DNA of 64,000 nucleotides from Bacteroidales bacterium (GCA_041441455.1 JASDTB010000056.1:2767-66766), one strand, 5' to 3'. Shown: positions 17,628-40,766, counted from the stretch's first letter. The notes: generated by a model not told the origin, from the sequence alone. Numbers and translations are program-made.

Positions 17628-17647
17628 TAGTTAGATGCGTCTAACTA
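17628..17647. promoter_or_regulatory. Perfect inverted repeat TAGTTAGA-TGCG-TCTAACTA, candidate MarR operator
   Basis: 8-4-8 palindrome located 25 nt upstream of the marR ATG at 17603 (4 nt upstream of the alternative TTG). Confidence 0.5.
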
Positions 17648-17887: not shown

Positions 17888-17920
17888 GTATAAGAAAGAA
17901 GGCTGCTTTTAAAGCAGCCT
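17888..17920 (-). terminator. Rho-independent terminator after the M16 peptidase gene (minus strand)
   Basis: Stem AGGCTGC/GCAGCCT (17900-17906 / 17914-17920), followed on the minus strand by TCTTTCTTAT. Confidence 0.65.
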
Positions 17921-17931
17921 ATCTAATTTAA

Positions 17932-20739: not shown

Positions 20740-22691
20740 TATTTGTTGGTTTTTAAAGTTGCACCAGGTTCTGAGAAGGTAAATTTAGGTTCTACAACCT
20801 GAATCTCTCCCTCTTTAGTTTTTACAGTCCATTTGGTTTTTGTAAGTGCCTTCCATATTTTGTCGTCATTTAAAACCTCTTGCGAGTATTTAATTCTGAA
20901 AACTGGAAGATCGTTATCGTTGAGAGCAGTTTCGATTCCAAGGAAGCCTTCTTGAAGTGAAAGGTGGCTTGAAAGATATGGAATGTTTCTAATGATAAGC
21001 GGTTTATCTAAATCTGTATAAACAATTTCATAAACAGCCTCTTTCTTGCCTGCATATTTTTCTACATTACTTTCGTATTGCTTTTTGTAGAAATGGAATT
21101 GTCTCTCTAAGAACTCTCTCTTTGAAATTGTATCTACTTTGTCTTCAATTGAGATGAATTCGAAGTCAACCTCAACCTTTTTCACTCCACCTCCATGAAC
21201 TGGCATCTGTAGCTCTTTCATCTCAACGGTGTTTTTAATAAAGTCGATATCAATAGGCTCATTGATGTTCATATAAAGTCTGACGATAAGTGGACATGCA
21301 TACTCTGTCTCAAGTCCATAATAGCCTTTTTTACTTAGTCTGAATTGCATTCCCAAATAATTTGGGTCCATCTTGTCAAACATTTTTTCGGTGCGAATAG
21401 TCACAACTTTAACTTGTTTCTCTTCTGCAGGAGGATTAGCTATTCTAAATTTCGCAGGAGTGTAGATTAATTCGCGAATCTTTTCGGGAGTTATTTCACT
21501 TGGAACGTAATAGATTTCAACAGTATGGTGCTTTACATATGTTGCAACACCATATACTCCAGGGATTTTTTGAAGTTGTGCCGAAAATGCTTTTGAACTT
21601 CCGAAGCATTTTACCGAACGTAGTCCATCTACTTGTAGCTTCTCTAGTTTATCGTATTTTGTTTTGTCACCCCACTTTTCGTCAATTGTTGGAAGCTCAT
21701 ATACAGATCCTAAGTAGAGGGCTAAAGCAAACATAACTACAGTCAGGATGGCAGGAAGCCAACGGAGATTCTTTTTTCCAGATATTGTCAGCGCAGACTT
21801 ATTACATGCTGTGATACATTCGCCGCAAAGGGTACAGTCGATGTCTTTAACAGTGTCGGTTTTGCAAACATCAATACCGTAAGGGCATTTTTTTGTGCAA
21901 AGTCCGCAGTCATTACAAAGCTCTTTATCTTTTTTGATTTTTAATATCGGGAAGATATTTGTTTCGTGGTAAACAATCTCTAGAATAAATCCAGTAATAC
22001 AGACAGCCCCCAAGATGTATACCCAAGAAATTGCCAGTCCAGATAGATTTGCTACTGCATAAAGTCCAATCAAGATAACAAATGATATGGTGAATTTGAA
22101 TACATTGCTTAGTGCTCCAAGTGGACAGATGTATTTGCACCAAAACATATCTACAACAAAGTTTCCTATAAAGAAAACTGCGATTGCAGCAATTGCCATC
22201 CATAGAGTCAACTCTCCTTGAAAGCCTGTAGCAAAGGCGTAATAAGGATCGAAGTTCTTACAAAATAGTTCGGAGCTTGAGATGGTGTAATAGAAAATAA
22301 TAAATAATAAGATGTATTTGAATGATCTTAAAATTTTGTCTGCAATTGACTTCGATTTTATTTCGAATGTCTTGATTTTTAGTTTTTTTCTAAGACGGGC
22401 TGTATATTCTCCGATAGTGCCTAATGGGCAGATATATCCACAGAATAGTTTGCTGAAGAGTATTATTCCAACAGCAAGTGCAACTCCCATCATAATTTGG
22501 GTCATTGTCATGCTGCATGCTAGAGATCCATTTACTAGATAAGAGCCTAGAGTTTCAATTCCTCCTAGAGGACAGTATGCCTCAGGATCGGCTGTCTCGT
22601 TTCCGAAGATTTTTGTAAGAAATACTATAATGGCGATTAATGTTCCCCATTGCAATATTGCTTTTGCCGGATTTTTCCACAGAGATTTCAT
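20739..22691 (-). CDS. NapH/NosR-like polytopic 4Fe-4S protein with about 320-aa C-terminal domain of unknown function
   Basis: CX3CP motifs FCGYICPLG and WCKYICPLG in TM helices, two ferredoxin motifs CNDCGLCTKKCP and CTLCGECITAC, then a TM helix and a soluble region with an HMA-like pattern lacking CxxC. Confidence 0.7.
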   Translation of the reverse strand: MKSLWKNPAKAILQWGTLIAIIVFLTKIFGNETADPEAYCPLGGIETLGSYLVNGSLACSMTMTQIMMGVALAVGIILFSKLFCGYICPLGTIGEYTARLRKKLKIKTFEIKSKSIADKILRSFKYILLFIIFYYTISSSELFCKNFDPYYAFATGFQGELTLWMAIAAIAVFFIGNFVVDMFWCKYICPLGALSNVFKFTISFVILIGLYAVANLSGLAISWVYILGAVCITGFILEIVYHETNIFPILKIKKDKELCNDCGLCTKKCPYGIDVCKTDTVKDIDCTLCGECITACNKSALTISGKKNLRWLPAILTVVMFALALYLGSVYELPTIDEKWGDKTKYDKLEKLQVDGLRSVKCFGSSKAFSAQLQKIPGVYGVATYVKHHTVEIYYVPSEITPEKIRELIYTPAKFRIANPPAEEKQVKVVTIRTEKMFDKMDPNYLGMQFRLSKKGYYGLETEYACPLIVRLYMNINEPIDIDFIKNTVEMKELQMPVHGGGVKKVEVDFEFISIEDKVDTISKREFLERQFHFYKKQYESNVEKYAGKKEAVYEIVYTDLDKPLIIRNIPYLSSHLSLQEGFLGIETALNDNDLPVFRIKYSQEVLNDDKIWKALTKTKWTVKTKEGEIQVVEPKFTFSEPGATLKTNK

Positions 22692-22708
22692 AGTTTATTG
22701 ATTTTAGG

Positions 22709-23047
22709 TTATCGTTTATTCTTTTTTGCATTTTCAGGATCTGCAGCTGCTTTCTCTCTGTATGTTTTGTATCTCTCTTCTCCAATTACTGCTGTTATTT
22801 TTTTTGGCAAGTCTTGTATTACCGCTTTAAGTTTTTCTCTATCGTCGATTACTGCATTTGCCTCTTTTTGGTAATCCATGTAAACAACAATCAGTTTGCT
22901 TGACTCTTCTGGAGTAATTTGAATGTATTTGGTCATGAATGCTACTTTCTCTTTAGCGAACACTTCGGGGGTTTTTCCGTTTTGTGCAGTTGCTGTAACA
23001 GCGAAGAGGCAAACAAAGCCTAACATAATGGCGATAAGTTTTTTCAT
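22709..23047 (-). CDS. Small secreted Lys/Glu-rich protein, unknown function
   Basis: Signal peptide MKKLIAIMLGFVCLFAVTATAQ. 112 aa. First gene of the minus-strand three-gene unit. Confidence 0.45.
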   Translation of the reverse strand: MKKLIAIMLGFVCLFAVTATAQNGKTPEVFAKEKVAFMTKYIQITPEESSKLIVVYMDYQKEANAVIDDREKLKAVIQDLPKKITAVIGEERYKTYREKAAADPENAKKNKR

Positions 23048-23101
23048 AATTTTCGGATTTTTATTTCGTATTGTTTGGCTATTTGACTGCGCATGTCGAA
23101 T

Positions 23102-23144
23102 ATGGTTTAATCATAAATTCGACTCCTATGTTCGATTAAACCAT
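23102..23144. promoter_or_regulatory. Perfect 11-bp inverted repeat ATGGTTTAATC-N21-GATTAAACCAT in the divergent M16 control region
   Basis: Arms at 23102-23112 and 23134-23144, within the 182-bp gap between the starts at 23047 (minus) and 23230 (plus). Confidence 0.4.
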
Positions 23145-23229
23145 TTATAGTTTATGTAGTCTTTATTAAAACGAAAACCGCCACCAGTAAATGTGAGTGA
23201 CGAGCATCTTCGTTTATAAACCTTAAACT

Positions 23230-26037
23230 ATGAAAAAAATAATTGTTCTGACATCTGCTATATTGCTAGCAGTGTTGAACTTAATGGCACAATCTTCTGG
23301 ATATTATACTATTCCAGAGGATAAATCTGTTGTTTCTGGCAAGCTTGCCAACGGAATGACATATTTCATAAAGAAAAATTCTAACCCTGCAGGTAAGGGA
23401 GAATTTTTTATTGTTCACAATGTTGGAGCCATCCAAGAAGAGGATAACCAAGATGGTCTTGCCCATTTTCTTGAACATATGGCTTTCAATGGTACTAAAA
23501 ACTTTCCAGGAAAGACGATGCTCGACTATCTCAATAAAATTGGGGTAAGATTCGGTTATGAGGTTAATGCCTACACATCTAAGGAGAGAACTGTATACAA
23601 CATTTCGAATGTTCCTTTAAATAGAAATTCTGTTGTTGACTCTGTATTGTTAATGCTTCACGATTGGTCTTCTTATATCACCTGCGACCCTAAAGAGATA
23701 AATAAGGAGAGAGGTGTAATTAGAGAAGAGTGGAGATTGGGAGATAATGCAAGAGGTAGAATGTATACTAACACAGCTAAAATTCTTTATACAGGTTCAA
23801 AGTTCGCTGAGCGAGATGTTATTGGTGATACTGCTGTTATAAATAATTTTGTTCCTTCTGTATTGACTGATTTCTATCATAAATGGTATAGACCCGATCT
23901 ACAAGCAATTGTATTAGTTGGAGATTTTGATGTTAAAGAGATTGAGAAAAAAGTTGTGTCACTGTTCTCAAAGATTCCAAAAGTAGCTAAACCATCTGCG
24001 AAAATAAATTATTCAGTTCCTCAGAATGATAAACCAATTTTGGGATACTTTACTGACCCTGAGTCAAGAGCATTGTCAGTAAAGTTATATTATAAACATA
24101 AAGCGCCTACAGCCGAATTAAAGCATTCTACAAAGAGTATTCATGATAAGTTGGCTATTACGCTTGCTGTAAATATGCTTGGTAAGAAGCTTGATATTGC
24201 GAAAGATAAACCAGGAGCATTGTATCGCACCGCAGTTGCAGTAACCGGCGACGGCAATGGCGATATGAATTACATTCAGATGACTGTCTCACCAATCGGG
24301 AAAAACCTCAAGGACGCTTTTAAAGGTTTGGTAACCGATATGAAGAGAGTGAAAAAATATGGTTTTTCTGAAAAGGATCTTGCATTATCTAAAGAGGACA
24401 TGCTCAAAAAGAATGCAGTGAATATTAACTCAATGGCAGACTTAAAGAACGGACAGTACGTTGAGTATATTGTTAGACACTTCACTCAAGATGAACCATT
24501 AATTACAGACAGAGAGCGTCTACAGTTGGAGCGTAAGATCTTAGAAGAGATTACACTGAATGATATTAACTCTTCTTTAAATAGAATTTTTCCAGATAGC
24601 AACAGAGTATTTGTATTTGCAGGAAATATTGCAGATAAAGAGACTTTTCCTTCTGAGTCTTTCGTTTTATCCGAGATCTATAAAGACATTGATAAAACAT
24701 TGACTCCTTTTGAAGAGCATGCAATTGCAAAGGATTTATATGATTTTTCAAAGATTTCTGCTGGAAAGATTATTGAAGAAAAGGCTGCCAATCAGTTTGG
24801 ATATAAGGAGTGGAGACTATCCAACGGTCTAATTGTTTATTGGGCTCCAAATAATGAAAATGGGGCGAAGATTCATATCCATGGTGAGTCAGATGGAGGT
24901 TTAATTCATATGTCAACAAATGATCTTACTAAAGGTAAGATGATCAGTAATATTTCAAGGATAAAGGGTTTAGGTAATTTGAACGATAAAGAGCTTAAAG
25001 CATTTATGATCGGTAAGACTTCTGGTGTTTTTTATAGTATCGGAAGAGATGCGAAAGTGCTAGATGCCTCTTCTGAAAAGAGTGATGCTGAGTTGTTGAT
25101 GAAACAAGTCTATTTAAACTTTACTAAGCCAGTATTTGACTCTCTTTCATATGTGAAATTTATTGATCGCCAGAAGGAGATGATGAAAGATATGTCTGAA
25201 GAGATAATTTATATGGATAGTGTTACAAACTTTATTTACTCTGGTAGCCCTATTGTAAAGAGTCTTAAGTCAAAAGACTTAGAAGGTCTCGTATACAACG
25301 AAGTTGTTGATTACTACAGAAAAACTATGTGCAATGCAACAGGATTCAAATTTGTATTTTCGGGACCTATTTCTGAGAGTGATGCTAAAATATTGGTTGA
25401 GAGATATTTGGCTACACTACCTGTTCTCCCTGTCAATTTGAAAGTTATCAATTCTTCCCCTATTTATGCAAAAGGGTGTAAAAATATGACATTTAAGTCT
25501 AAAACAGCCACTACGCCTAGAACTGTGATTTCGGTATTGTATTCTGGAGATATGAAATATAGTGCTGAAAATTATATTAAACTTTCAATTTTAAGATATG
25601 TTTTGTCTGACAGATATTTAAACAGCATACGTGAGGAAAAAGGTGGTGCTTACTACGTTTCAGTAGCAGATCAGGTGTTTGTAAAACCGCAGAATAGAGT
25701 ATCTTTGAGAGTTGATTTCGAAACTGATCCAAAATTAAGTTACGATTTGTTAGCACTTGTTCAAAGTGAGATCGATAAAATTGTAAAGGAGGGGCCAGAG
25801 CAAAGATCTGTTAATGATGCAGTTCTATTTATGAAAAAGAAGTTTGGTGAGGCGGAATCGAAAAAGGCTTTCAATGAGGCAAGATTTACGAGCATGCTGT
25901 TTGAAGGTGTTGACCTGTATGATGGATATGTAAAAATGTTGGAAAAGATTACACCAGCCGACTTAAGAAAATTTGCCGCTGAATTGTTTAAGCAAAACAA
26001 TAAATTGACTATGATAAAAGAACCTGAAACGAAATAA
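23230..26037 (+). CDS. M16-family zinc peptidase, PqqL-like single chain (935 aa), secreted
   Basis: Signal peptide and HFLEHMAFNG (HxxEH). Long stretches align with the 17932-20739 product, for example HNVGxxQEExNQxGLAHFLEHMAFNGTK. Confidence 0.85.
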   Translation: MKKIIVLTSAILLAVLNLMAQSSGYYTIPEDKSVVSGKLANGMTYFIKKNSNPAGKGEFFIVHNVGAIQEEDNQDGLAHFLEHMAFNGTKNFPGKTMLDYLNKIGVRFGYEVNAYTSKERTVYNISNVPLNRNSVVDSVLLMLHDWSSYITCDPKEINKERGVIREEWRLGDNARGRMYTNTAKILYTGSKFAERDVIGDTAVINNFVPSVLTDFYHKWYRPDLQAIVLVGDFDVKEIEKKVVSLFSKIPKVAKPSAKINYSVPQNDKPILGYFTDPESRALSVKLYYKHKAPTAELKHSTKSIHDKLAITLAVNMLGKKLDIAKDKPGALYRTAVAVTGDGNGDMNYIQMTVSPIGKNLKDAFKGLVTDMKRVKKYGFSEKDLALSKEDMLKKNAVNINSMADLKNGQYVEYIVRHFTQDEPLITDRERLQLERKILEEITLNDINSSLNRIFPDSNRVFVFAGNIADKETFPSESFVLSEIYKDIDKTLTPFEEHAIAKDLYDFSKISAGKIIEEKAANQFGYKEWRLSNGLIVYWAPNNENGAKIHIHGESDGGLIHMSTNDLTKGKMISNISRIKGLGNLNDKELKAFMIGKTSGVFYSIGRDAKVLDASSEKSDAELLMKQVYLNFTKPVFDSLSYVKFIDRQKEMMKDMSEEIIYMDSVTNFIYSGSPIVKSLKSKDLEGLVYNEVVDYYRKTMCNATGFKFVFSGPISESDAKILVERYLATLPVLPVNLKVINSSPIYAKGCKNMTFKSKTATTPRTVISVLYSGDMKYSAENYIKLSILRYVLSDRYLNSIREEKGGAYYVSVADQVFVKPQNRVSLRVDFETDPKLSYDLLALVQSEIDKIVKEGPEQRSVNDAVLFMKKKFGEAESKKAFNEARFTSMLFEGVDLYDGYVKMLEKITPADLRKFAAELFKQNNKLTMIKEPETK

Positions 26038-26064
26038 ACAATTAATAACCTAAATAATAACACA

Positions 26065-28893
26065 GTGAAAAAATTGCTTGTCCTTTTGTTATTATCGCTT
26101 TTGATAATACCTGTCTCTTTTGCTCAGGGGCAAAAGAAGTACACTTTAGAGGGAAAAGTAACCCTCTCGGGCACAGAAGAACCTATCCCTTATGCTAATG
26201 TGTTGATCAAAGAACTTAATCTTTGGGCCTTCACAAACGCTGATGGTTCTTTCAAGATTGTAGGAATTTTACCTGGAACCTACAACCTCGAGGCCTCATC
26301 GCTTGGATATCAGAAGACTGTATTCCAAGTGAAAATAATTAAAGATGTAGCGTCGTTCCGCATTCAACTCAAGGAGGATAACCTTACCCTCGATGACGTT
26401 GTTGTGACAGCAAAAGCTGGGGCCACAATGAATTCTTCTTCCAGAGTTGACAAACAGGCAATTCAGCACCTTCAGGCATCAAGTCTTGCCGACGTAATGC
26501 AGCTTGTTCCAGGATCCGTTATTAAAAATCCAGACTTGACATCTGCAAATGTTATTACTATTAGGTCAATTGATGCTAATGGATACAATGCAAGAGGTGT
26601 AGGTCTCTTAGTGAATGGATCAAAGATATCTGATGATGCTAAGCTTAGCTCGAATGACCCGCTTGACTTTCGAAAATTATCTACAGATAATATTGAATCT
26701 GTTGAGGTATTAAAAGGGATTGTATCTGCAGAGTATGGTGATATAACTTCTGGAGCAATTCTAGTTACTACAAAGGCAGGTAGAACTCCTTATGAAATAC
26801 GTATTAAAACAGATCCCAAAACCAAAGCCTTTTCTTTTGGAAAGGGTTTCTCGTTAGGAGATAATAAAGGAAACTTAAATGTTGACTTAGATTATGCAAG
26901 AGCATTTAAAAATTGGATATCTCCTGTAGAAATTTTTAATAGAACGACTTTAGGACTAACTTATTCTAACACATTTATGAATAAATCAACACCTCTTCGT
27001 TTTAATGTGAGATTAAGTGGCTACATGACTGGAAATAGTGTTACAAGCGATCCTGATGTTTCAAAAGAAGATTTTACAAAAAATAGAGAAAGAAATCTCT
27101 CACTATCTATTTATGGAAGTTGGATGTTAAATAAATCATGGATTTCATCACTTAATTATAATGTTTCTGGTGGCTATACTAATAGAACTAATCAAAAATA
27201 TGAAGTTACAAATCAACCTCCACTACCTACAACAAATATTTTAACTCCGGGGTTAAACTTGGGTTATTTTACGAATGTTCTTGATAGAAGAGATCAACGA
27301 ATAGAAGACATCCCTCTGTATTTCAATGCTAAATTATCTGGTAATTTAAATAAAAGTATTAAAAAGGTTTTATTTAAAACAACAGTAGGTGCAGAATTTA
27401 ATACAAAAGGAAATAAAGGTAGAGGAGAATATTATGAGGGCCAAGCTAGACCTCAGTTTTTCAGGGAAAGACACTTTAGTGATGTTCCCTTTATGAGCGA
27501 TTTCAGTGTATTCGCCGAAGAAAAAATCAACATTCCAATTTACAAAACTTCATTAGAGATAATTGCTGGAGTAAGAGCAAATCAAATGATTATTAAAGGT
27601 TATAGCTATGATCCTACAATCGATCCTCGATTTAACATTAAATATAACTTTTTACAAAACAAAAGGACAGGAACATTTAGAGCTCTTTCTATCAGAGGTG
27701 GTTGGGGGATTATGCAAAAACTTCCTACAATAGGATATTTATATCCAGCACCAGATTACAATGATAGGACAATTTTTCAGTACCGAAATACTGCTACTAA
27801 TGAGGAATTAGTCTTAATTAATACATCGTTGATAGATGGACTCCTTCCTTATAATCTAAAGCCAGAAAAAACTACTAAATATGAGATAGGTCTAGATTTT
27901 AATATTTCTGGAATTGAAGGAAATATAACTTATTTCAATGAAAGTTTAAAAAATGGAATAAGTGAAAATTATCAATATAGTAGTAAAAGTTTCGACTATT
28001 ACTCAACAATAACAGATCCAAATGCTGCACCAAAGTTCGAAAACGGAAAAATTTGGATTAAAGATGGTTCTGGTAATTATATTCAACATACATACACAAC
28101 TAATACTGAGTTCTTAAAATACAAAAGACCAGATAATAGAGGAGCTGTTGAAAAATGGGGAATAGAATACGACATCAATTTTGGAAAGATTAAGAGTTTG
28201 AATACATCAATAATTGTTTCTGGAGCATATTTAAGAAGTAAAAATTATAATTCAGGAATTGAATATAACTACTCTGATGTTCAAGATCCAATTGTTCCAC
28301 AGCAAAAATTTCCATATGTAGCATTGTATTCTGGAGAAGCATTATTGTCAATTGGCGATAACAGAGATCGTTTAAATACTAATTTAAATTTCATTACAAA
28401 TATTCCATCTATAAGAATGGTTGTAACATTAACAGCTCAGTGTGTATGGATGAACCGTACATGGAATGAGTATGATGATGGTAAAATTTATGCGCAAGAC
28501 TCTAATGGTAATCCGATTTATGGAGATTATAATAACATATCTAATGATAAGGTTTTATATAGAGATCCTGTAGCTTATATGGACTTTAATGGTGTAGTAC
28601 GTCCGTTTAGTGATTATTGGACAACGTCTGATAATAATTTAAAGCGTAGATTAGCTTCTTTAAGGATGGCAACTAACAGAACTACATATTTTCTTAAATC
28701 AGGATATGACCCATATTTCATGGCAAATATAAGAGTGACGAAAGAGTTAGGTAAATTAGCGTCGCTCTCGTTTTATGCAAATAATTTTACAAATTCTACA
28801 CCGATTATGAAAAACCAGTCTAACCCGAATGGAGTTGGATCTCGAGTAAACACTGATATTTATTTCGGAGCAGAGTTAAAACTAACATTCTAA
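26065..28893 (+). CDS. TonB-dependent receptor (non-SusC context), triad copy 1
   Basis: GTG start, signal peptide, CarboxypepD_reg-like domain, plug (STDNIESVEVLKGIVSAEYGDITSGAI), long barrel ending in F. Confidence 0.85.
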   Translation: MKKLLVLLLLSLLIIPVSFAQGQKKYTLEGKVTLSGTEEPIPYANVLIKELNLWAFTNADGSFKIVGILPGTYNLEASSLGYQKTVFQVKIIKDVASFRIQLKEDNLTLDDVVVTAKAGATMNSSSRVDKQAIQHLQASSLADVMQLVPGSVIKNPDLTSANVITIRSIDANGYNARGVGLLVNGSKISDDAKLSSNDPLDFRKLSTDNIESVEVLKGIVSAEYGDITSGAILVTTKAGRTPYEIRIKTDPKTKAFSFGKGFSLGDNKGNLNVDLDYARAFKNWISPVEIFNRTTLGLTYSNTFMNKSTPLRFNVRLSGYMTGNSVTSDPDVSKEDFTKNRERNLSLSIYGSWMLNKSWISSLNYNVSGGYTNRTNQKYEVTNQPPLPTTNILTPGLNLGYFTNVLDRRDQRIEDIPLYFNAKLSGNLNKSIKKVLFKTTVGAEFNTKGNKGRGEYYEGQARPQFFRERHFSDVPFMSDFSVFAEEKINIPIYKTSLEIIAGVRANQMIIKGYSYDPTIDPRFNIKYNFLQNKRTGTFRALSIRGGWGIMQKLPTIGYLYPAPDYNDRTIFQYRNTATNEELVLINTSLIDGLLPYNLKPEKTTKYEIGLDFNISGIEGNITYFNESLKNGISENYQYSSKSFDYYSTITDPNAAPKFENGKIWIKDGSGNYIQHTYTTNTEFLKYKRPDNRGAVEKWGIEYDINFGKIKSLNTSIIVSGAYLRSKNYNSGIEYNYSDVQDPIVPQQKFPYVALYSGEALLSIGDNRDRLNTNLNFITNIPSIRMVVTLTAQCVWMNRTWNEYDDGKIYAQDSNGNPIYGDYNNISNDKVLYRDPVAYMDFNGVVRPFSDYWTTSDNNLKRRLASLRMATNRTTYFLKSGYDPYFMANIRVTKELGKLASLSFYANNFTNSTPIMKNQSNPNGVGSRVNTDIYFGAELKLTF

Positions 28894-28904
28894 AAAGAAT
28901 AGAG

Positions 28905-30143
28905 ATGAAAAAAATATACTATGTATTTATTCTGATCGCGCTTTTATCGGTAAGTGCCTGTATGAAAAGCGTCAAAGAGGATCAGTTTGCCGATGACTCT
29001 CTGTCTTCTGTACTGAAGATTACTGTTAAGATGCCACTAGGGTTTGATTATACAACACAAGGGCTAACAGTTTCTCTTTCTGATCCATCTTCGGGTTTGA
29101 AGTTTAGTGGTGTCACTGACAATGCAGGTGTGGCAACGATTAGAGTTGCGCATGGAACTTATATTGCAACAACGCAAGTTAGCCATAGTGAATCTGGGGG
29201 AGTTATCTATATATTTAATGGAACAACCGAACAAATAAGAGCAACACCAAAAGATCCAGCTTTGATAAACTCTAATCTGAATCTGAATGTGTCAAAAGCT
29301 GGCCAAATAATTATTAAGGAATTCTACTATGGTGGATGTTTTGATGTTGCTACAAATAAATCTTATGCTAAGGATCAATATTTTATTTTATATAATAATA
29401 CTGGTGAGACGGCTTATTTAGACTCATTATGTGTAGGAGTAATTGATCCATTTAATGCTCCAACTAACGGAGCAACTTCTGCTTGGGTAAAACCGGGCAC
29501 TACAGAATTACGTGACTCTTTACCTGCGACTAGTATGGGATGGATGTTTCCTGGTAGAGGTAAAGATTATCCCCTATTGCCTGGAGGAGAGGTTGTAATT
29601 TCTTTAAATGCAATTAATCATAAAGCAACTGTCTCTTCATCTGTAGATTTAGGGAAGGCTGGTTATTGGGCTTTATTTGATCCAATTCTCACAAAGGCTC
29701 AAGCCGTTCCAAACGCTGGAGTCAATTTACTTAAAGGGTATTGGAAAGTTGGTACTGCTACATCTTATGTAATGTCTATAGTTAGTCCAGCACTATTTAT
29801 ATACTCACTAGGAGGAAAAACAACTGATCAATTTGTGCAATCAACATATACTTGGCATCCAAAACAACTAACTAATAGAAATTTTGACTGCTTAATGGTT
29901 GATAAAAATCTTGTATTGGATGGAGTTGAGTGCTTTAAAAACATTACTGACACAAAAAGAATTAGGCCTGAAGTTGATAATGGATTTGCCATAACTGATG
30001 GCTCGGGACAAGGTCAGAGTATTCATAGGAAAGTCGATCCAGTCGCAACTGCTGCTGCAGGAGGAAGGATCGTTTATATGGATACAAATAACTCTTCTGT
30101 GGATTTTGAGAAGAGAGCCAAAGCCTCATTGACTAACAACTAA
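28905..30143 (+). CDS. DUF4876-like lipoprotein, triad copy 1
   Basis: Lipobox LSVSAC, an Ig/transthyretin-like N-domain, then an LTD-like region (IIIKEFYYGG...DQYFILYNNTGE...DTNNSSVDF). Paralog of 56706-57935. Confidence 0.6.
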   Translation: MKKIYYVFILIALLSVSACMKSVKEDQFADDSLSSVLKITVKMPLGFDYTTQGLTVSLSDPSSGLKFSGVTDNAGVATIRVAHGTYIATTQVSHSESGGVIYIFNGTTEQIRATPKDPALINSNLNLNVSKAGQIIIKEFYYGGCFDVATNKSYAKDQYFILYNNTGETAYLDSLCVGVIDPFNAPTNGATSAWVKPGTTELRDSLPATSMGWMFPGRGKDYPLLPGGEVVISLNAINHKATVSSSVDLGKAGYWALFDPILTKAQAVPNAGVNLLKGYWKVGTATSYVMSIVSPALFIYSLGGKTTDQFVQSTYTWHPKQLTNRNFDCLMVDKNLVLDGVECFKNITDTKRIRPEVDNGFAITDGSGQGQSIHRKVDPVATAAAGGRIVYMDTNNSSVDFEKRAKASLTNN

Positions 30144-31765
30144 TGACAACAAAGATGAAAAACAAGACACTATATATAGCAGGAATATTGGCTTTGAGTC
30201 TTCAAATAAGTACACTCAGAGCTCAGGAAGTTGCTGATAAAAGTTTCTACTCTTTCGAAAGAATTGAGTTAAAGACTCCTTGGCTTACTTCGGAAAATGG
30301 TGCAGGCCTTGTGTTTAACAAGGTTAAGGACTTCTCTACAGTTGGTGGATACTTTTCAAACCAAAGCGGAGATTATACAAATTATAATGACCCGCAAGTA
30401 TATGAATCGTTTGGTCTTTCTACGAAGTCGTATATGAAGGTTAAAAAGTTCTATTTTTATGGTAGTTTCGGATATGATTATGGAGTTAGACAAAATCAAT
30501 CTTGGCTAGGAACTATTTATCCTAATACAGCACTTAATCCTATTTGCGATTCTGTGCCAGGTAAAGTACTTAGAGAGGACTATTTTTTAGCAGCTAAGAT
30601 TGGCTACAAGGTTAATGATAAGTATTCTTTGGGAGTAGCGTTTGATTATCATACAGCAACAGGGGCCAAAAGAAAAGATGGACGAAATAGTAATGTGTTT
30701 TCTGATTTCTCTGTACGCCCAGGTGTAACATTTAATTCAAAATACCTAACACTTGGTTTAAATGCGAATTATAGCCACTCGGTTGAGAGAGTTGAATACA
30801 AATACTTAGGCGATGTAACTGGTAAAAGTCTCTATTATTTTGAACCCTTCTTTTTCTATACAGAGTCTGGTATTAACTCGTCTTCAACTTACAAGAGAGG
30901 CTACTTTTCCGATATCTTTGGTGGTGCTTTACAAGTAGAGCTGAAGCTAGGGAAACTAGCTTTTTATAACCAATTGCAAGTTAACTATACTAGGGAAAAT
31001 GATTTTGAAGATAATAATTTATTAAAGAGGTATGCCACTATTGACGGCTTAAAATATAAGTATAATGGAGTTGCTAAGTATTCTACTAAGTTTGTTGATC
31101 ATATAGTAAACTTAAGATTCATTAGTGATGAGACTTTTTCGTATAATGTAATAAATAATTATGAAAGAGTACCTGGGGAAAACAATGTGTGGGCATATTT
31201 CGAATACGGTAAAGATTTGAGATATATTCAAACATCAAAGAATTATGGTGCAGAATACAACGCATATCTTAAAAAGAGCGAATGGTTAATAGATTGGACA
31301 TTTTCAGCAGGATTCAATTATTTTGAGATCGACAAACAATATAAAGTATACCCTGCAAAATACGAACAAAATTACAATTTGTCTGAAGTGTACGGGTCAG
31401 TTGCCAAAAGTGTAATGACCAGCGATTTGTCTAAATTGGATTTATCTGTTGGATATGGATATACATTTGGAAAAGGTGATATGTTAAAGACTCAGAACCC
31501 TTTAACAACTGGAGCCTTAAAACAAAATGAAAAGCTATTATATGCAGATTTTATGTACAACACTGCCAACAAATATAGATTCTCATTTGCTTCAAAATTC
31601 ACATATGCTGTAGAACCGAAATCGGGTAAATCAGTTTACGCCGCATTTAAAGCTACTCATATACAATTACCTCAAGCACCAATACGTGACGGAATTATTT
31701 TTAGTCAATATTCTGGAGGAGCTAACAGAGGTTATTATGAATTCTCTTTTGGATTCAACTTCTAA
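30143..31765 (+). CDS. Second outer-membrane beta-barrel protein (DUF6850-like), triad copy 1
   Basis: Signal peptide, alternating Tyr/Gly/Asn-rich strands, C-terminal FSFGFNF. Its start overlaps the upstream stop (TAATG). Paralog of 57957-59516. Confidence 0.6.
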   Translation: MTTKMKNKTLYIAGILALSLQISTLRAQEVADKSFYSFERIELKTPWLTSENGAGLVFNKVKDFSTVGGYFSNQSGDYTNYNDPQVYESFGLSTKSYMKVKKFYFYGSFGYDYGVRQNQSWLGTIYPNTALNPICDSVPGKVLREDYFLAAKIGYKVNDKYSLGVAFDYHTATGAKRKDGRNSNVFSDFSVRPGVTFNSKYLTLGLNANYSHSVERVEYKYLGDVTGKSLYYFEPFFFYTESGINSSSTYKRGYFSDIFGGALQVELKLGKLAFYNQLQVNYTRENDFEDNNLLKRYATIDGLKYKYNGVAKYSTKFVDHIVNLRFISDETFSYNVINNYERVPGENNVWAYFEYGKDLRYIQTSKNYGAEYNAYLKKSEWLIDWTFSAGFNYFEIDKQYKVYPAKYEQNYNLSEVYGSVAKSVMTSDLSKLDLSVGYGYTFGKGDMLKTQNPLTTGALKQNEKLLYADFMYNTANKYRFSFASKFTYAVEPKSGKSVYAAFKATHIQLPQAPIRDGIIFSQYSGGANRGYYEFSFGFNF

Positions 31766-31784
31766 CAAACAATCATATCTTATA

Positions 31785-31819
31785 GAGTTGCCGATGAAAA
31801 TCGGCAGCTCTTTTATTTT
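31785..31819 (+). terminator. Rho-independent terminator after the second-barrel gene of triad 1
   Basis: 10-bp stem GAGTTGCCGA/TCGGCAGCTC (one G-U pair), loop TGAAAA, then TTTTATTTT. It ends 18 nt before the S46 ATG. Confidence 0.7.
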
Positions 31820-31836
31820 CCCTAATAAAAACCGAC

Positions 31837-34017
31837 ATGTTAAAAAAATCAATCGCAACTATCGCACTTCTCACGATTGTTGCTTTCAAAACTTATGCAG
31901 ATGAGGGAATGTGGCTGGTCAATTTACTTGACAAACAGCTTTATGCTCAAATGAAGGCCAAAGGACTGAAATTGTCTGCAAATGAGATATATAACGACAA
32001 AGGTGGAGCGATTTCCGATGCCATAGTAGCTATTGACGGCGGAAGCTGCAGTGGAAGCATCATCTCAGCGGAGGGTCTAATGATTACGAACCACCACTGT
32101 GCATATGGAGATGTTCATAAGCTAAGTACTAAAGATAAAAACTACCTCGAAGATGGTTTTTGGGCAATGACTCGCGACCAAGAGGTTCCAATCAAAGGTA
32201 AACAAGTTACATTTCTAAGAAGAGTAATTGATGTTACCGATGAGACAAACAGAGTAATCGATAGCTTGGATAAGGCTGGACCTCGTGGACTATTCTTTAT
32301 GAACAAAGTCTCAGGTGTGTTTGAAAAAAGATATAGCAATCAACCATACGAAGTTGCATTAATGTCTATGTGGAGAGGTAGTAAATACTACTTGTACTTC
32401 TATGAAACATACAAAGATATTCGCCTTGTTGGAGCACCTCCTGTCTCTATCGGAGCATTTGGAGGCGAAACCGACAACTGGGGCTGGCCTCAGCACAAAG
32501 GAGACTTTGCAATGTATAGAGTCTATGCAAACAAAGAGGGAAAACCAGCAGAATATTCTAAAGATAATGTTCCATTGAAAGCAGCAAAATACCTTACTGT
32601 CTCGTCTAAAGGAGTAAACAAAGATGATTTTACAATGGTACTTGGATATCCAGGATCGACAAATCGTTACACATCTTCTTTTGAACTAAAGGAGAAGTAC
32701 GAGATCCTCAATCCAGTAATCAGTGGAATCAGGAGAGCTAAACTCGAAGTCTGGAAAAAATATATGGATGCAAGTCCTGCAGTAAGATTAAAATATGCCG
32801 ATAAATACTTCGGAATCAGTAATTATACCGACTATGCTAAGTGGGAAAATATCTGCATTGGAAGATATAAAATCATTTCACAGATAGAAAAGAGAGAGAA
32901 GGAACTTCAGGCATGGATTGCAGCCAATCCAGAGAGAGTAGCAAAATATGGGAAGGTGATTGAAAATCTGAAAAACGGATACGCATCAAAAGCGGAGATT
33001 ACAAGAATCAAAGAGAATTTCAGAGAGTCAATGGTGAGAGGTGCAGAATTTGTCGCAATTGCGTCTAGGATGAACTCAATGGCGAGCTCTCTTAAAAAAG
33101 CTGGAAAGACAAAATTCTCAATGGAAGACAAATCTGTTGCTGAATATGTCAATAAATTTGCAGCGAAACAATATGATGAGTCCGACATTAAGGCAGACAG
33201 AGAGCTATTTAAAGTTATGCTTGGCTATTATTTGAAAAACGTACCATCATCATTTTATGATAAAGAGTTTAAAAAGATGGCAGAAGGTCTTGGCAACGAT
33301 CCAATTAAAATTGCCGACTATGTTTACGACAACAGTATTATCACAGACTCGGTTCGTCTTAGAAATTTTTTCAATTCAGAGAGAACAATCGAAGAGCTAC
33401 TTGCAGATCCAGTAATTACAGTTGTTAAAACAACAGGAATCATTCCATACAACAAAGTGGAAGATAGAATTTTAGACAGCGTAAATGTCTCTTTAGGAAA
33501 AGAGAAAACTCTCTATACAAAAGCACTGTACGAAATGTATCAAGAGAAGGGTAAAGCGATCTCTCCTGACGCTAACTCAACAATGAGAGTGACTTTTGGA
33601 GAAGTTGGCCCAATTGAACCTGCTGACGGAATCTACTACCACTATCAAACAACAACAAAAGGGATAGAAGAGAAATATGATCCAAAGAATTATGAGTTCA
33701 ATCTTAAACCAGAGATGCAGAAAAAATTAGAGACATCAGATTGGGGCAGATGGGGCAAAAATGGTAAATTATATGTAAATTTCCTCGCAGATATGGATAT
33801 AACTGGAGGTAACTCCGGAAGCGCAGTGCTAAATGGAAGTGGAGAGTTGATAGGATTAGCATTTGATGGAAACAGAGAGTCGATGAGCGGAGATGTCTTC
33901 TTTAAGGAGGGCTATTGCAAATCGGTGTGTGTTGACATCAGATATGTTATGTGGGTTATCGAAAAATATGCAGGAGCAAGTAATATTATCAAGGAATTAA
34001 AAATCAACGATAAATAA
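31837..34017 (+). CDS. S46-family dipeptidyl-peptidase (DPP7-like)
   Basis: Signal peptide then ADEGMWL, catalytic His in ITNHHCAYGD, catalytic Ser in TGGNSGSAV; 726 aa. Confidence 0.9.
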   Translation: MLKKSIATIALLTIVAFKTYADEGMWLVNLLDKQLYAQMKAKGLKLSANEIYNDKGGAISDAIVAIDGGSCSGSIISAEGLMITNHHCAYGDVHKLSTKDKNYLEDGFWAMTRDQEVPIKGKQVTFLRRVIDVTDETNRVIDSLDKAGPRGLFFMNKVSGVFEKRYSNQPYEVALMSMWRGSKYYLYFYETYKDIRLVGAPPVSIGAFGGETDNWGWPQHKGDFAMYRVYANKEGKPAEYSKDNVPLKAAKYLTVSSKGVNKDDFTMVLGYPGSTNRYTSSFELKEKYEILNPVISGIRRAKLEVWKKYMDASPAVRLKYADKYFGISNYTDYAKWENICIGRYKIISQIEKREKELQAWIAANPERVAKYGKVIENLKNGYASKAEITRIKENFRESMVRGAEFVAIASRMNSMASSLKKAGKTKFSMEDKSVAEYVNKFAAKQYDESDIKADRELFKVMLGYYLKNVPSSFYDKEFKKMAEGLGNDPIKIADYVYDNSIITDSVRLRNFFNSERTIEELLADPVITVVKTTGIIPYNKVEDRILDSVNVSLGKEKTLYTKALYEMYQEKGKAISPDANSTMRVTFGEVGPIEPADGIYYHYQTTTKGIEEKYDPKNYEFNLKPEMQKKLETSDWGRWGKNGKLYVNFLADMDITGGNSGSAVLNGSGELIGLAFDGNRESMSGDVFFKEGYCKSVCVDIRYVMWVIEKYAGASNIIKELKINDK

Positions 34018-34019
34018 TT

Positions 34020-36197
34020 ATGCTAAAAAAATTGACAATTGCCCTTGTGGCATTAACCATACTGTTTCCCTCTTTTTCAAGAGCGGACGAAGGTATGTGG
34101 CTTGTGAATATGTTCGAGAAGAGCATTTACCCTCAAATGGTAAAAAAAGGTCTTAAATTGACTTCGAAAGAGATTTATAATGAAGAGAATGACGCTGCGC
34201 TTAGCAACGCAATTGTCTCATTAGATTTTGGTTGTACTGGCAGTATGATCTCCGATAAGGGACTAATGATTACAAATCACCACTGTGCCTATGGTGACAT
34301 ACATGCACTTAGTACTCCAGAAAAGAACTATCTCGAAGATGGTTTCTGGGCAATGAACCAATCAGAGGAGAAGCCAATACCTGGTAAAAATGTACTTTTC
34401 CTTAGAAAGGTGATTGATGTAACCGACGAAGTAAAAGCAGATGTAGCAGAACTACAAAAGCAAGGATTCAAAGGCGCAATCATGAGAAGAGTATTCAAAC
34501 ATATTGAGATGCGCTATAAGGAGAAGAATAATCTCGAAGCAATGTGTGCATCAATGTGGAGCTCTACTAAATTCTATATGTTTTTGTACGAAGTATATTC
34601 AGACGTTCGTTTAGTTGGAGCACCTCCAGTTTCAATCGGAGCATTCGGTGGTGAGACAGACAACTGGGGATGGCCACAACATAAAGGTGATTTTGCAATT
34701 TATAGAGTTTATGCCGACAAAGATGGCAAACCAGCAAAATATTCTGCAGAGAATAAACCATTGATGCCTAAGAGAGTATTGAACATCTCAACAAAAGGTG
34801 TTAAAGAGAATGATTACTCAATGATTCTTGGATACCCTGGAAAGATCAATCGCTATGTATCATCATTTGAGGTGAAAGAGAAACAAGAGATTTTGAATCC
34901 AATTGTTGTAGAGATCAGAAGAGCAAAACTTGATGTTTGGAAGAAACATATGGATGCCAATCCTACTGTAAGACTTAAATATTCTGATAAATATTTCGGA
35001 ATCAGCAACTATACCGACTATGCAAAATGGGAGAACAAATGCTTTATCAGATACGATGTTATAAGTATTAGAGAACAAGAGGAGAGAGAGCTTGCTAAAT
35101 GGATTGAGTCAGATCCAAAGGCTAAGGAAAAATATGGCGACCTGCTTGCTAAGTTAGAAAAAGGATTTGCAGCAAGAGCTGAACTGATAAAACAAAAGGC
35201 TTACTTCAGAGAGTCATTTGTTTCAATTTCGGAAGTTGTGCAATCTGCTAAGAGATTTGGAAATGTAACTCGTGACATGGAGAAGGGTGGAATCGAGAAG
35301 ATTTCTGCTAATGATCAGATGTTTAAAACAGAGTATGCAGCAATTCAAAGATCACTTTATGATGTTTATGATTTAGCGACAGATAGAGATCTATTCCGCC
35401 AACAATTAGCGTTCTTTATCAAATATGTTAAACCAGAATATTATGGTGGAGCACTTGCTAAATGGGTTAAAGAGTACAACGGAGATGCAGGCAGAATTGC
35501 AGACTATATCTATGACAACTCAATCTTTACTCAAAAAGATAAACTTTACAAATACTTTGAAACACCAAGATCGAAAGAGGAGATATTGTCTGATCCAGCA
35601 ATTTTATTGGCAGAGTCTTGCTCTATCCAAACATTCAATGAGATAACCAATAAAATGATCACTCAGCTTGGATTCGATACTGAGGCTTTAACTTCACAAT
35701 ACACTAGAGCTCTTTATCAAATGAGAGAGTCAAAAGGTCTTCCACAATACCCAGATGCAAACTCAACTATGCGTATTACATACGGAACAGTAGGTGGCAT
35801 CCAACCCGCTGATGGTATTACTTATGGCTATAGAACAACTATTAAGGGTTACCTTGAGAAAAAAGATCAGACTAATTACGAGTTCAACGTAAAACCTAAG
35901 CTAGAGGCGATAATTAAAGCTAAAGACTGGGGAAGATGGGGCGAAAACGGTCAGCTTTATGTAAACTTCTTAACCAATAATGACATTACAGGAGGCAATT
36001 CAGGAAGTCCAGTAATCAATGGAAAAGGCGAATTAATTGGACTTGCTTTCGATGGAAACAGAGAGTCGATGAGTGGTGATGCATACTTCCATCCTGAATA
36101 TTTCAAAACCGTTTGTGTAGATATCAGATTTGTCCTTTGGGTAGTCGATAAATATGCAGGAGCGGGTTATCTAATTAACGAAATGAAACTTAAGTAA
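34020..36197 (+). CDS. S46-family dipeptidyl-peptidase (DPP7-like), tandem paralog
   Basis: ADEGMWL, ITNHHCAYGD, TGGNSGSPV; 725 aa. Starts 3 nt after the previous stop. Confidence 0.9.
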   Translation: MLKKLTIALVALTILFPSFSRADEGMWLVNMFEKSIYPQMVKKGLKLTSKEIYNEENDAALSNAIVSLDFGCTGSMISDKGLMITNHHCAYGDIHALSTPEKNYLEDGFWAMNQSEEKPIPGKNVLFLRKVIDVTDEVKADVAELQKQGFKGAIMRRVFKHIEMRYKEKNNLEAMCASMWSSTKFYMFLYEVYSDVRLVGAPPVSIGAFGGETDNWGWPQHKGDFAIYRVYADKDGKPAKYSAENKPLMPKRVLNISTKGVKENDYSMILGYPGKINRYVSSFEVKEKQEILNPIVVEIRRAKLDVWKKHMDANPTVRLKYSDKYFGISNYTDYAKWENKCFIRYDVISIREQEERELAKWIESDPKAKEKYGDLLAKLEKGFAARAELIKQKAYFRESFVSISEVVQSAKRFGNVTRDMEKGGIEKISANDQMFKTEYAAIQRSLYDVYDLATDRDLFRQQLAFFIKYVKPEYYGGALAKWVKEYNGDAGRIADYIYDNSIFTQKDKLYKYFETPRSKEEILSDPAILLAESCSIQTFNEITNKMITQLGFDTEALTSQYTRALYQMRESKGLPQYPDANSTMRITYGTVGGIQPADGITYGYRTTIKGYLEKKDQTNYEFNVKPKLEAIIKAKDWGRWGENGQLYVNFLTNNDITGGNSGSPVINGKGELIGLAFDGNRESMSGDAYFHPEYFKTVCVDIRFVLWVVDKYAGAGYLINEMKLK

Positions 36198-36205
36198 AAA
36201 CATAG

Positions 36206-37888: not shown

Positions 37889-37906
37889 TTTAAACTCAAA
37901 ATTGTA

Positions 37907-39592: not shown

Positions 39593-40766
39593 TTCTACAT
39601 CTACCTTCGGTCTTTAGAAAGAGAAGCATCAGCAAGGCTGCAATTAACGACAATGCACCACCAAAGTAGAATGGGGCAGATGAATTGACGTAATCGTAGA
39701 GAAGTCCAGCAAAAAGACTAGCGGGTAAGAAAGTTATACCGAGGACGGCATGGTACAAACCAAATGCCGTCCCTTTTATTTCATGGGGTACGATGTCTGA
39801 GATCATAGCTTTTTGACTACTGTCTGTCATTGCACTATAAATCCCATAAAGCGCAAAGAGCAGCAAGAAGACTCCAAAATGCGAGGAGTAGCCAAAGATG
39901 AAATAGATTATTGAATAGAGAAAGAATCCAATGACAATCATCTTTCCGTGACCAATTTTATCAGAAAGTTTTCCAATTGGAACAGCCAAGATGACAGAAA
40001 CTGTATTATATAACATGAATACAAGCGGTATTAAAGAGTGAGAAATGCCTGTTTCGGAGGTCTTTACAAGTAAAAGAGCATCTGTTGAATTTCCTAGTGA
40101 AAAGACGAACACAATAATCAAAAAACAGTAAAATCTTTGAGGAATCTTGTTTACTGCGCCAGCTAAACTATGTTCAACTTTTTTGATACTATTCTCTTTT
40201 ATATACAGAACTATTGTGAGTACGCCAAAAAGAGCAGGGATGGAGGCTATTATAAAGATTAACTGATAGTTGTCGGGAAAGTAATACAATAGAGCCATTG
40301 CTATTAGTGGTCCGAGCACTGCTCCACTATTGTCCATCGCTTTATGAAAACCAAAATTTTTACCAGAGTCGTTGTCTCCTGTTGCTTGTCCAATCATACT
40401 ATCACGTGGAGCCGCTCTTAGACCTTTTCCGAATCTTTCAAAGATTCGCAGAGTCATAATTTCTGCTGCAAATTTAGAGATTGCATAGAACGGTGTAACT
40501 AGAGTCGAAAGTGTGTAGCCAATTACCAAAAAAGGTTTGTATCTACCTAATTTGTCGCTCCAGAAGCCAGATAAAACTTTTACAAACGAAGCAATACTCT
40601 CCGATAGCCCCTCGATTGCGGAGATTGCTGTCTTACTAGCTCCAATTGAGAGCAAAAAAAGAGGCATAACACTATACACCATTTTGATTGATGTATCGTT
40701 GAAAAAGCTTGTCACACCTATAAAGAAGACATTTTTTTCTATACCAAAAATTTTTTCTTTTTTCAA
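39585..40766 (-). CDS. MFS transporter
   Basis: 393 aa, about 12 TM helices, with MFS-like loop motifs (GFWSDKLGRYKP, GKLSDKIGHGK). Confidence 0.8.
   Translation of the reverse strand: MKKEKIFGIEKNVFFIGVTSFFNDTSIKMVYSVMPLFLLSIGASKTAISAIEGLSESIASFVKVLSGFWSDKLGRYKPFLVIGYTLSTLVTPFYAISKFAAEIMTLRIFERFGKGLRAAPRDSMIGQATGDNDSGKNFGFHKAMDNSGAVLGPLIAMALLYYFPDNYQLIFIIASIPALFGVLTIVLYIKENSIKKVEHSLAGAVNKIPQRFYCFLIIVFVFSLGNSTDALLLVKTSETGISHSLIPLVFMLYNTVSVILAVPIGKLSDKIGHGKMIVIGFFLYSIIYFIFGYSSHFGVFLLLFALYGIYSAMTDSSQKAMISDIVPHEIKGTAFGLYHAVLGITFLPASLFAGLLYDYVNSSAPFYFGGALSLIAALLMLLFLKTEGRCRIS

Follow-up and report, generated by a model that had tools for sequence, protein, structure and literature searches.

In Bacteroides thetaiotaomicron, the DUF4876 lipoproteins BT1938 and BT3632 have been described as putative lids of BT1939 and BT3633, two TonB-dependent transporters (TBDTs) that are not of the SusC type. 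AlphaFold-Multimer placed DUF4876 in contact with the TBDT on its outer face, leaving an opening of ~20 Å; the proximity of the two genes was conserved in 81 and 59 genera, and protease shaving data indicated that the B. fragilis DUF4876 homolog is surface-exposed (Price, Deutschbauer, Arkin; bioRxiv 10.1101/2023.03.17.533168). Depletion of iron led to a 21- to 215-fold induction of PG1019–22 in Porphyromonas gingivalis and, in B. thetaiotaomicron, to a 37- to 128-fold induction of BT3625–33, which includes PepSY reductases, and a 3.5- to 7.4-fold induction of BT1933–39, annotated as a TBDT, a DUF4876 protein, a HEAT-repeat protein and hypotheticals (PMC10434189). In protease-associated import systems, processing in the periplasm is carried out by the proteases PqqL and FusC (PMC6793856). 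Here we report a computational analysis of a 64,000-nucleotide (nt) stretch of DNA from an uncultured Bacteroidales bacterium (GCA_041441455.1 JASDTB010000056.1:2767-66766; hereafter the window), which encodes two copies, A and B, of a set of three genes for a TBDT, a DUF4876 lipoprotein and a second outer-membrane barrel of the family DUF6850 (hereafter the triad).

Non-Sus TBDTs of Bacteroidota are poorly understood, and DUF4876 loci are, by published reports, among those strongly induced under iron or haem starvation in P. gingivalis and B. thetaiotaomicron. The two operons of the window share a parallel design, in which the gene for an exported, putative protease (the M16 peptidase M16b in copy A, the HEAT-repeat protein HEAT1 in copy B) comes first and the triad follows. 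Because the two first-gene proteases are unrelated, this looks like non-orthologous replacement of a required function, and it points to import combined with proteolysis, as in the Fus/PqqL systems of Proteobacteria. With moderate confidence, we propose that the two triads are a Bacteroidota counterpart of protease-associated import systems. This would be the most economical model, given the parallel four-gene core, the unrelated proteases, the PqqL/FusC type of M16b and the iron- or haem-responsive homologs; iron or haem, which the earlier note listed only among the conditions for profiling transcription, is the leading physiological clue, and comes from the published transcriptomics. The natural unit is larger than the triad: with the exported protease it numbers four genes in each copy, and in copy B it extends to six.

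Two paralogous outer-membrane triads

The six triad genes lie on the plus strand in the same order, and a mechanical list of open reading frames (ORFs) returned each of them exactly where an earlier note, written from the sequence alone, had placed it. In copy A, TBDT_A (942 residues; 26065–28893), with Pfam matches to CarbopepD_reg_2, Plug and TonB_dep_Rec_b-barrel, is followed by the lipoprotein DUF4876_A (412 residues; 28905–30143; lipobox LSVSAC; Pfam DUF4876, 1e-30) and the barrel DUF6850_A (540 residues; 30143–31765; Pfam DUF6850, 4e-53). Copy B comprises TBDT_B (953 residues; 53832–56693; Pfam Plug and CarbopepD_reg_2), DUF4876_B (409 residues; 56706–57935; lipobox FISC; Pfam DUF4876, 2e-45, with a weak LTD match) and the plugless barrel DUF6850_B (519 residues; 57957–59516; Pfam DUF6850, 4e-104). 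The Pfam matches of all six proteins exceeded the gathering cut-offs, with DUF4876 scores of 107.6 (A) and 155.5 bits (B) against a cut-off of 27.9, and full-length DUF6850 (PF21012) scores of 181.6 (A) and 349.7 bits (B) against a cut-off of 27. The two families had been guessed correctly in the earlier note, as had the aromatic termini of the barrels, both of which end in Phe (..FGFNF, ..GLGFTF).

Each component aligned with its counterpart in pairwise BLASTP, with 29% identity for the receptors (E = 8e-111), 26% for the lipoproteins (E = 2e-23) and 29% across the N-terminal 217 residues for the barrels (E = 9e-20), and the peptides previously quoted as evidence recur within these alignments. 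The resemblance is far above chance and indicates ancient paralogy. The triad is thus present in two related copies, as had been claimed, and the duplication is an old one: a recent segmental duplication is ruled out by the 26–29% identity and by the separate orthologs, with distinct neighbours, that each copy has. The gap between the TBDT and lipoprotein genes is 11 nt in copy A and 12 nt in copy B, and the start codon of DUF6850_A overlaps the stop codon of DUF4876_A by one base; the DUF6850 and lipoprotein genes are predicted to be translationally coupled.

Neither receptor matched the SusC/RagA model TIGR04056 in an NCBIfam scan, which returned only generic TonB models, far below their cut-offs, and the label "non-Sus" therefore holds. 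No SusD match was found by Pfam in the lipoproteins adjoining the receptors, whose family is DUF4876, in agreement with the earlier statement that the triad is not a SusC/SusD pair. Both receptors carry a TonB-box-like sequence, LDDVVVTA (A) or LKEVAVVA (B), after the N-terminal CarbopepD_reg domain. When a profile of 14 triad TBDT sequences was searched against all PDB sequences, the matches were confined to the plug regions of PfeA, FepA, Cir and PirA, and a PDB search with a single triad TBDT sequence gave no match. For the lipoproteins, the PDB entry 4Q1Z, a "putative lipoprotein" from structural genomics, was matched by DUF4876_B at 2.6e-76 over residues 43–406 and by DUF4876_A at 3.5e-19. 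The view that DUF4876 is known only at the DUF level was therefore mistaken, since this crystal structure exists and a lid role for the family beside non-SusC TBDTs has been proposed in print. The lipobox Cys is kept in 40 A-type and 72 B-type DUF4876 orthologs, together with a conserved motif after the Cys.

To examine the prevalence of the triad, we collected B-type loci with a scan of one genome per species using the copy-B barrel (124 encoded relatives, of which 80 loci were kept) and A-type loci with a metagenome scan using the copy-A barrel (54 loci). Loci with enough sequence to be testable numbered 63 (B-type) and 41 (A-type), and 47 and 22, respectively, were well flanked. In 63 of the 63 testable B-type loci, a TBDT gene and a DUF4876 gene directly preceded DUF6850 on the same strand, and the triad was intact in 39 of the 41 A-type loci, the remaining two of which look fragmented. 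Across both types, the gap between the lipoprotein and barrel genes ranged from −38 to +42 nt. The names of the B-type records include Rikenellaceae, Muribaculaceae, Prolixibacteraceae, Proteiniphilum, Prevotellaceae and others, and the genomes in which the two paralogs were met are of Bacteroidales type. This census of gene neighbourhoods, a check that the earlier note had called for, establishes the triad as a conserved unit, and in essentially every locus examined the DUF6850 barrel is part of the functional unit.

The linkage to protease genes, likewise anticipated, also recurs in other genomes. HEAT genes flank the triad in 46 of the 47 well-flanked B-type loci, with HEAT1 upstream of TBDT_B in nearly all B-type loci and a conserved order of HEAT3 after HEAT2. 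Near the well-flanked A-type triads, S46 peptidase genes were found in 13/22 loci, M16 peptidase genes in 12/22 and genes for a NapH-like polyferredoxin in 11/22. The S46, M16 and NapH-like genes occur in at least four orders or orientations, in lineages that are 30–60% identical; proximity kept despite such rearrangement argues for function rather than inherited synteny.

Comparison of copy A with the metagenome contigs L081, L082 and L135 of the same species unexpectedly revealed a second form of linkage among the triad genes. In L081 and L135, the flanks are 97–100% identical to the window at the nucleotide level, and the identity falls to 62–85% (about 70%) in a stretch that starts at ~26,350 and runs to the end of DUF6850_A. 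Its left boundary is ~300 nt into the TBDT_A gene, past the signal peptide and part of the CarbopepD_reg-like domain. In L081 the divergence ends at ~31,770, just before a terminator-like hairpin, and in L135 identity returns to 95–99% at ~31,150, inside the barrel gene, which marks a different recombination breakpoint. Conserved islands are present at the two gene junctions inside the divergent stretch (28772–29100 and 29972–30270), alleles of the copy-A barrel form three or more classes (with 100%, 86% and 72% identity in amino acids), and the adjacent S46 and TldD genes are unaffected. Near-identical strains exchange the three copy-A outer-membrane genes together, in a single cassette, as would be expected of parts that have to fit one another, and this joint replacement supports their working together. 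In copy B the pattern is reversed: in a ~90%-identical relative, the triad (93–98%) is more conserved than its HEAT neighbours (80–96%). For copy A alone, the joint replacement also points to selection directed at the surface, whether by phage, by bacteriocins or through variation of the cargo, and the cassette swap marks the copy-A outer-membrane genes as a co-adapted, surface-selected set.

Both DUF6850 proteins have signal peptides and lack a plug domain. An AlphaFold2 model of DUF6850_B, built with 42 homologs (predicted local distance difference test score (pLDDT) 89, predicted template-modelling score (pTM) 0.83), is a closed barrel of ~19–20 strands; ahead of it, residues 32–56 form a well-predicted helical segment, which contains the most conserved motif of the family (W44, N49, A51, G52). 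Foldseek returned no specific structural homolog of DUF6850_B, only generic barrels with template-modelling scores of 0.25–0.39 (FadL, TBDT barrels, OprC, Occ, AlgE and MOMP), and a sequence search of the PDB gave no match. The idea that DUF6850 arose from the barrel of its partner TBDT by loss of the plug was considered and rejected (hhalign probability 6%). The family comprises ~1,140 clusters at 50% identity in public data (E ≤ 1e-10), and no mention of "DUF6850" was found in the literature searched. Its linkage to the lipoprotein gene and its co-variation suggest that DUF6850 probably belongs to the same outer-membrane assembly as the TBDT and the lipoprotein.

Genes flanking the two triads

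The first gene of the copy-A operon, M16b (935 residues; 23230–26037, plus strand), ends 27 nt before TBDT_A and encodes an exported M16 peptidase of the PqqL/FusC type, with a signal peptide, Pfam support and the motif HFLEH at residue 79. Its best PDB matches, all full length, were 9LDY (2e-143), PqqL 6OFS (7e-60) and FusC 6B03 (3e-48). A divergent operon on the minus strand encodes, in order of transcription, a small exported protein (112 residues; 22709–23047; signal peptide, no Pfam family above noise), a NapH/MauN-like membrane polyferredoxin (650 residues; 20739–22691) and a second exported double-M16 peptidase, M16a (935 residues; 17932–20739; Pfam Peptidase_M16 and Peptidase_M16_C; signal peptide; HFLEH at residue 82). 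The gene for the 112-residue protein is also present in the same-species loci L082 and L135. The polyferredoxin (Pfam Fer4_5, 1e-11; NCBIfam napH, 8.6e-21) has ~6 transmembrane helices, two CX3CP motifs and a 4Fe-4S dicluster, and its long C-terminal extension contains a weak HMA-like domain (Pfam HMA, 0.0035). It is an odd partner for peptidases, and may provide a reductase step.

Downstream of triad A, on the plus strand, are tandem exported S46 dipeptidyl-peptidases of the DPP7/DPP11 type (31837–34017 and 34020–36197; Pfam Peptidase_S46, 1e-203 and 1e-205; NCBIfam Dpp7, 1e-182), with signal peptides ending ADEGMW, and two exported TldD/PmbA-like metallopeptidase homologs (36206–37888 and 37907–39592; Pfam PmbA_TldD_3rd; signal peptides), the first of which matched NCBIfam TldD at 2e-27. 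The M16/S46/TldD context ascribed to copy A in the earlier note was borne out, with HxxEH in both M16 peptidases and signal peptides on the M16, S46 and TldD-like proteins alike. Between the triad and the S46 genes lies an intrinsic-terminator-like hairpin (31784–31811, plus strand; 12-bp stem with 6 GC pairs and a T tail), the strongest such site in 22600–40900; because of it, the S46/TldD genes may form a separate or attenuated transcription unit in the window genome. Elsewhere in the window, we observed a third TBDT, of the OMP_b-brl_3 type (12331–14670), a P-type cation ATPase with a MarR-family regulator (14651–17624) directly downstream of M16a, and an M3 peptidase gene (42885–44981).

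Copy B is a six-gene cluster, HEAT1-TBDT-DUF4876-DUF6850-HEAT2-HEAT3, with gaps of 4–21 nt and no terminator; an M16 gene is absent from it. HEAT1 (717 residues; 51657–53810; Pfam HEAT_2) is exported and ends 21 nt before TBDT_B, and the triad is followed by HEAT2 (721 residues; 59527–61692) and HEAT3 (740 residues; 61697–63919; Pfam HEAT_2, 1e-14), all on the plus strand. The HEAT2 start in the ORF list, TTG at 59485, overlaps DUF6850_B, and ATG at 59527 gives a normal signal peptide; the latter is probably the true start, because near-identical database sequences have 721 residues. The three HEAT proteins are paralogs, each with a signal peptide, a ~430-residue N-terminal region with no Pfam family and C-terminal HEAT repeats of the PBS-lyase type. 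Two motifs, HxHG and DAC, are invariant across 28 aligned sequences that include all three paralogs of the window. In the AlphaFold2 model of HEAT2 (pLDDT 85), each motif follows a hydrophobic beta-strand (265–269 and 364–367), and the catalytic dyad of clan CD peptidases (caspase, gingipain, CHAT) has the same motif-after-strand arrangement. Foldseek with the whole HEAT2 model returned mostly HEAT repeats, with a weak match to the caspase-like SAVED-CHAT structure 8TL0 (E = 2e-3). It is plausible that the N-terminal His/Cys domain is a clan-CD-like (caspase-like) peptidase.

Upstream of HEAT1, a small Cys/His-rich protein (119 residues; 51116–51475, plus strand) has one N-terminal transmembrane helix, no Pfam or NCBIfam family and the stretch ..CGCEHSSRIC..HTECNCHHKHH..CVCG..CC... 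This ORF recurs upstream of HEAT1 in 26/47 well-flanked B-type loci, even where the DUF362 and DUF6599 genes are missing, and its product could be a metal-binding or regulatory partner. In the window, two genes between cysS and the copy-B cluster (49143–51074, plus strand) code for a DUF362 protein, whose signal is of the twin-arginine type (MERRDFFKVLSASGVGMA), and for a DUF6599 protein. Since these two genes accompany cysS in many genomes and are missing from many B-type loci, they are probably syntenic neighbours and not parts of the system. In the relative L139, the genes past HEAT3 (14446–22166), which have no counterpart within the window's limits, code for two S9 peptidases, a TolB-like protein and a further TBDT.

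The leaders of the two operons share a promoter-like 10-mer, ATGTAGTCTT, which lies 76 nt upstream of the M16b start (23154–23163, plus strand, within AAC-N17-GTCTT) and 76 nt upstream of the HEAT1 start (51581–51590, plus strand). These are its only two exact occurrences in the 64 kb. Alignment of the leaders revealed further common blocks, AAC-N17-GTCTT, TAAAA, GTRAGTGA and ATAAAC. In 56 loci from other species, the 10-mer was not present upstream of HEAT1, and partial versions occurred only in close relatives. The 10-mer may serve both operons as a promoter or operator, with spacing like that of extracytoplasmic function (ECF) promoters; the two paralogous systems would then be co-regulated. 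Among the annotated genes of the window there was no ECF sigma or anti-sigma gene. Rfam returned no riboswitch (cobalamin, thiamine pyrophosphate or other), whether at gathering thresholds for the whole window or at E ≤ 1 for the two leaders.

A proposed model of import coupled to proteolysis

In the proposed model, the DUF4876 lipoprotein, probably surface-exposed, would sit on the transporter as an incomplete lid and capture the substrate, a protein- or peptide-borne nutrient bound at the cell surface, and TonB energy would drive this nutrient through the transporter. In the periplasm, the cargo would be degraded in copy A by the PqqL/FusC-type M16 peptidase, possibly followed by the S46 dipeptidyl-peptidases and the TldD-like enzymes, and in copy B by the three caspase-like/HEAT proteins, freeing amino acids and/or bound iron, haem or a metal cofactor. 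DUF6850 might anchor or display the lipoprotein or serve as an auxiliary pore, and the NapH-like polyferredoxin could, on pure inference, supply a reductive step. The analysis shows which genes and families are present, that the unit is conserved, that the proteases are exported and that DUF6850 has a barrel fold. The lid proposal and the iron or haem regulation of homologs are taken from the literature and not from the window; the nature of the cargo, the coupling of the proteases to uptake and the role of DUF6850 are what we infer. The earlier suggestion of a modular uptake machine for proteinaceous cargo is thus upheld as far as the recurring protease linkage is concerned, and its cargo stays conjectural.

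Several observations weigh against this model. An S46 gene is missing nearby in 9/22 well-flanked A-type loci, and several of these have no protease gene at all; the genes around the protease-free triads have unrelated housekeeping or regulatory functions and offered no further hint. In the window itself, DUF6850_A and the first S46 gene are 71 nt apart, with the terminator-like hairpin between them. FusA and YddB, which published papers report as solved, were not among the PDB matches of the 14-sequence TBDT profile. No C25 or CHAT match was found for the HEAT proteins by Pfam at E ≤ 5 or with a 7-sequence profile against the PDB, and the clan-CD assignment, drawn from motifs and one weak structural match, is weak; the label "C25-like" used in the earlier note is plausible in view of the HxHG and DAC motifs after strands and the weak CHAT match. 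The export-signal rule that we used for lipoproteins asks for two acidic residues among the six positions that follow the lipid-anchor Cys; by this rule the DUF4876 lipoproteins of the window, with one acidic residue, have a borderline signal, and the B-type consensus C-E-Q-F-x-[DE] has two. The role of DUF6850, suggested by gene linkage and co-variation, is the weakest point. From the literature, none of 519 conditions revealed a clear fitness phenotype for BT1938/39 or BT3632/33 mutants, and TBDTs with alternative lids were argued to carry small substrates, the known ones being ~1.4 kDa or less (bioRxiv 10.1101/2023.03.17.533168). A 2026 paper still described PG1019/PG1020 as an uncharacterised transport system, upregulated in a haem-starved hemH mutant.

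Some of these observations would fit import of a small iron-related compound (siderophore-like chelate, haem or metal cofactor), with the proteases serving the general periplasmic peptide catabolism of a proteolytic anaerobe and linked to the triads by genome organisation or co-regulation, which we regard as possible though doubtful. The size limit of alternative-lid substrates, the A-type triads that stand alone without proteases and the hairpin between triad A and the S46 genes all favour it, as do the induction of homologous loci by iron or haem starvation and the resemblance of the plug region to siderophore receptors; the NapH-like polyferredoxin with its HMA-like domain could be a metal reductase, comparable to the PepSY reductases of BT3625–33. 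It leaves unexplained, however, why a protease gene heads both operons, 21–27 nt from the receptor, why HEAT/His-Cys genes accompany 46/47 B-type triads, why M16b is specifically of the import-associated PqqL/FusC type, and why the protease linkage outlasts rearrangement. Moreover, neither cluster contains siderophore-biosynthesis genes, a PepSY reductase, an ATP-binding cassette (ABC) importer or a riboswitch.

A crowd of peptidases in the region (S46 enzymes of the DPP7/11 type, an M3 peptidase and two M16 peptidases) might instead indicate nutritional peptide importers of amino-acid-fermenting Bacteroidales, a non-Sus analog of RagAB in which oligopeptides are trimmed to dipeptides by the S46, M16 and TldD-like enzymes and iron plays no part. 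The presence of S46 near A-type triads in 13/22 loci and the origin of relatives in digester, sludge and gut metagenomes, including Proteiniphilum, are consistent with this. We consider it unlikely, because the documented inducer of the homologs is iron or haem starvation and not peptide supply, copy B has HEAT/His-Cys proteins only and no S46, M16 or TldD partners, the copy-A proteases have a co-conserved partner in an iron-sulfur membrane protein, and the BT1938/39 mutants had no phenotype on many nitrogen sources. Least of all do we favour a DUF6850 that stands outside the importer, as an independent export or release channel (for example for a secreted binding factor) or a general porin sharing the operon: Foldseek found only generic barrels, FadL, Occ, AlgE and MOMP porins among them, and there is no homology to the partner TBDT, but the barrel gene is invariably and tightly coupled to the lipoprotein gene through overlapping or near-overlapping codons in ~100 independent loci, is replaced jointly with receptor and lipoprotein in the allelic cassette, and is accompanied by no conserved candidate gene for a secreted cargo.

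Comparison with known import systems

The closest relatives of the triads are the described DUF4876/TBDT pairs (BT1939/BT1938, BT3633/BT3632 and PG1019–PG1022), which belong to the same Pfam families and likewise have the lipoprotein directly after a non-SusC TBDT. Orthology of copy B to the B. thetaiotaomicron and P. gingivalis loci rests on published annotation and on the 4Q1Z match. The published account of DUF4876 covers pairs only; it does not discuss the DUF6850 barrel, genes for proteases or HEAT proteins, or the occurrence of two paralogous systems in one genome. The receptor–lipoprotein pair and its iron regulation have already been described, and the system is hence not categorically new; what appears to be undescribed is that a DUF6850 barrel is obligatory, that protease genes, non-orthologous between the copies, come first, that HEAT genes form part of a six-gene cluster, and that copy A has an allelic cassette.

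RagAB imports peptides. SusC/SusD and RagA/RagB resemble the triads in having a TBDT with an N-terminal carboxypeptidase-regulatory-like domain and a lipoprotein encoded immediately downstream. In contrast to these systems, the window proteins lack the TIGR04056 signature and the tetratricopeptide repeat (TPR) fold of SusD/RagB, a third component, the barrel, is obligatory, and the lid is predicted to stay ~20 Å open.

Slam systems (TbpA/TbpB/Slam; hemophilin/Slam/TBDT) encode a TBDT, a surface lipoprotein and a separate barrel together and serve in iron piracy. Their gene logic is like that of the triad, whereas DUF6850 is not DUF560/TPR and has, by Pfam and AlphaFold2, ~20 strands instead of 14 and lacks a TPR domain in the periplasm. 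Slam is reported to be absent from Bacteroidota, and the export of surface lipoproteins in this phylum is an acknowledged open question (PMC12578637). An improbable reading of the triad is that DUF6850 flips, anchors or houses the DUF4876 lipoprotein, comparable to Slam–TbpB or LptD–LptE, in which case the unit would be a three-component translocon for whole-protein import in Bacteroidota. If true, it would give a small, genetically tractable handle on the display of surface lipoproteins in Bacteroidota.

The functional model proposed here is drawn from the Fus/Ydd–PqqL systems (Pectobacterium FusA/FusB/FusC/FusD; Escherichia coli YddA/YddB/PqqL). Copy A likewise pairs a TBDT with an exported single-chain double-M16 peptidase, and the induction by iron limitation known for PqqL is also documented for triad homologs. 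The systems differ in that the window TBDTs fall outside the FusA/YddB family, the triads have a surface lipoprotein and a second barrel in addition, and copy B has unrelated His/Cys-HEAT proteins instead of M16; a dedicated TonB homolog or ABC transporter, a feature of Fus/Ydd, was not found among the annotated genes of the window. The triads would thus work like Fus/PqqL without belonging to it, given the unrelated TBDT, the lack of a dedicated TonB or ABC gene and the added lipoprotein and barrel. If confirmed, this would extend TBDT-mediated piracy of proteins or cofactors to Bacteroidota and give DUF6850 a role.

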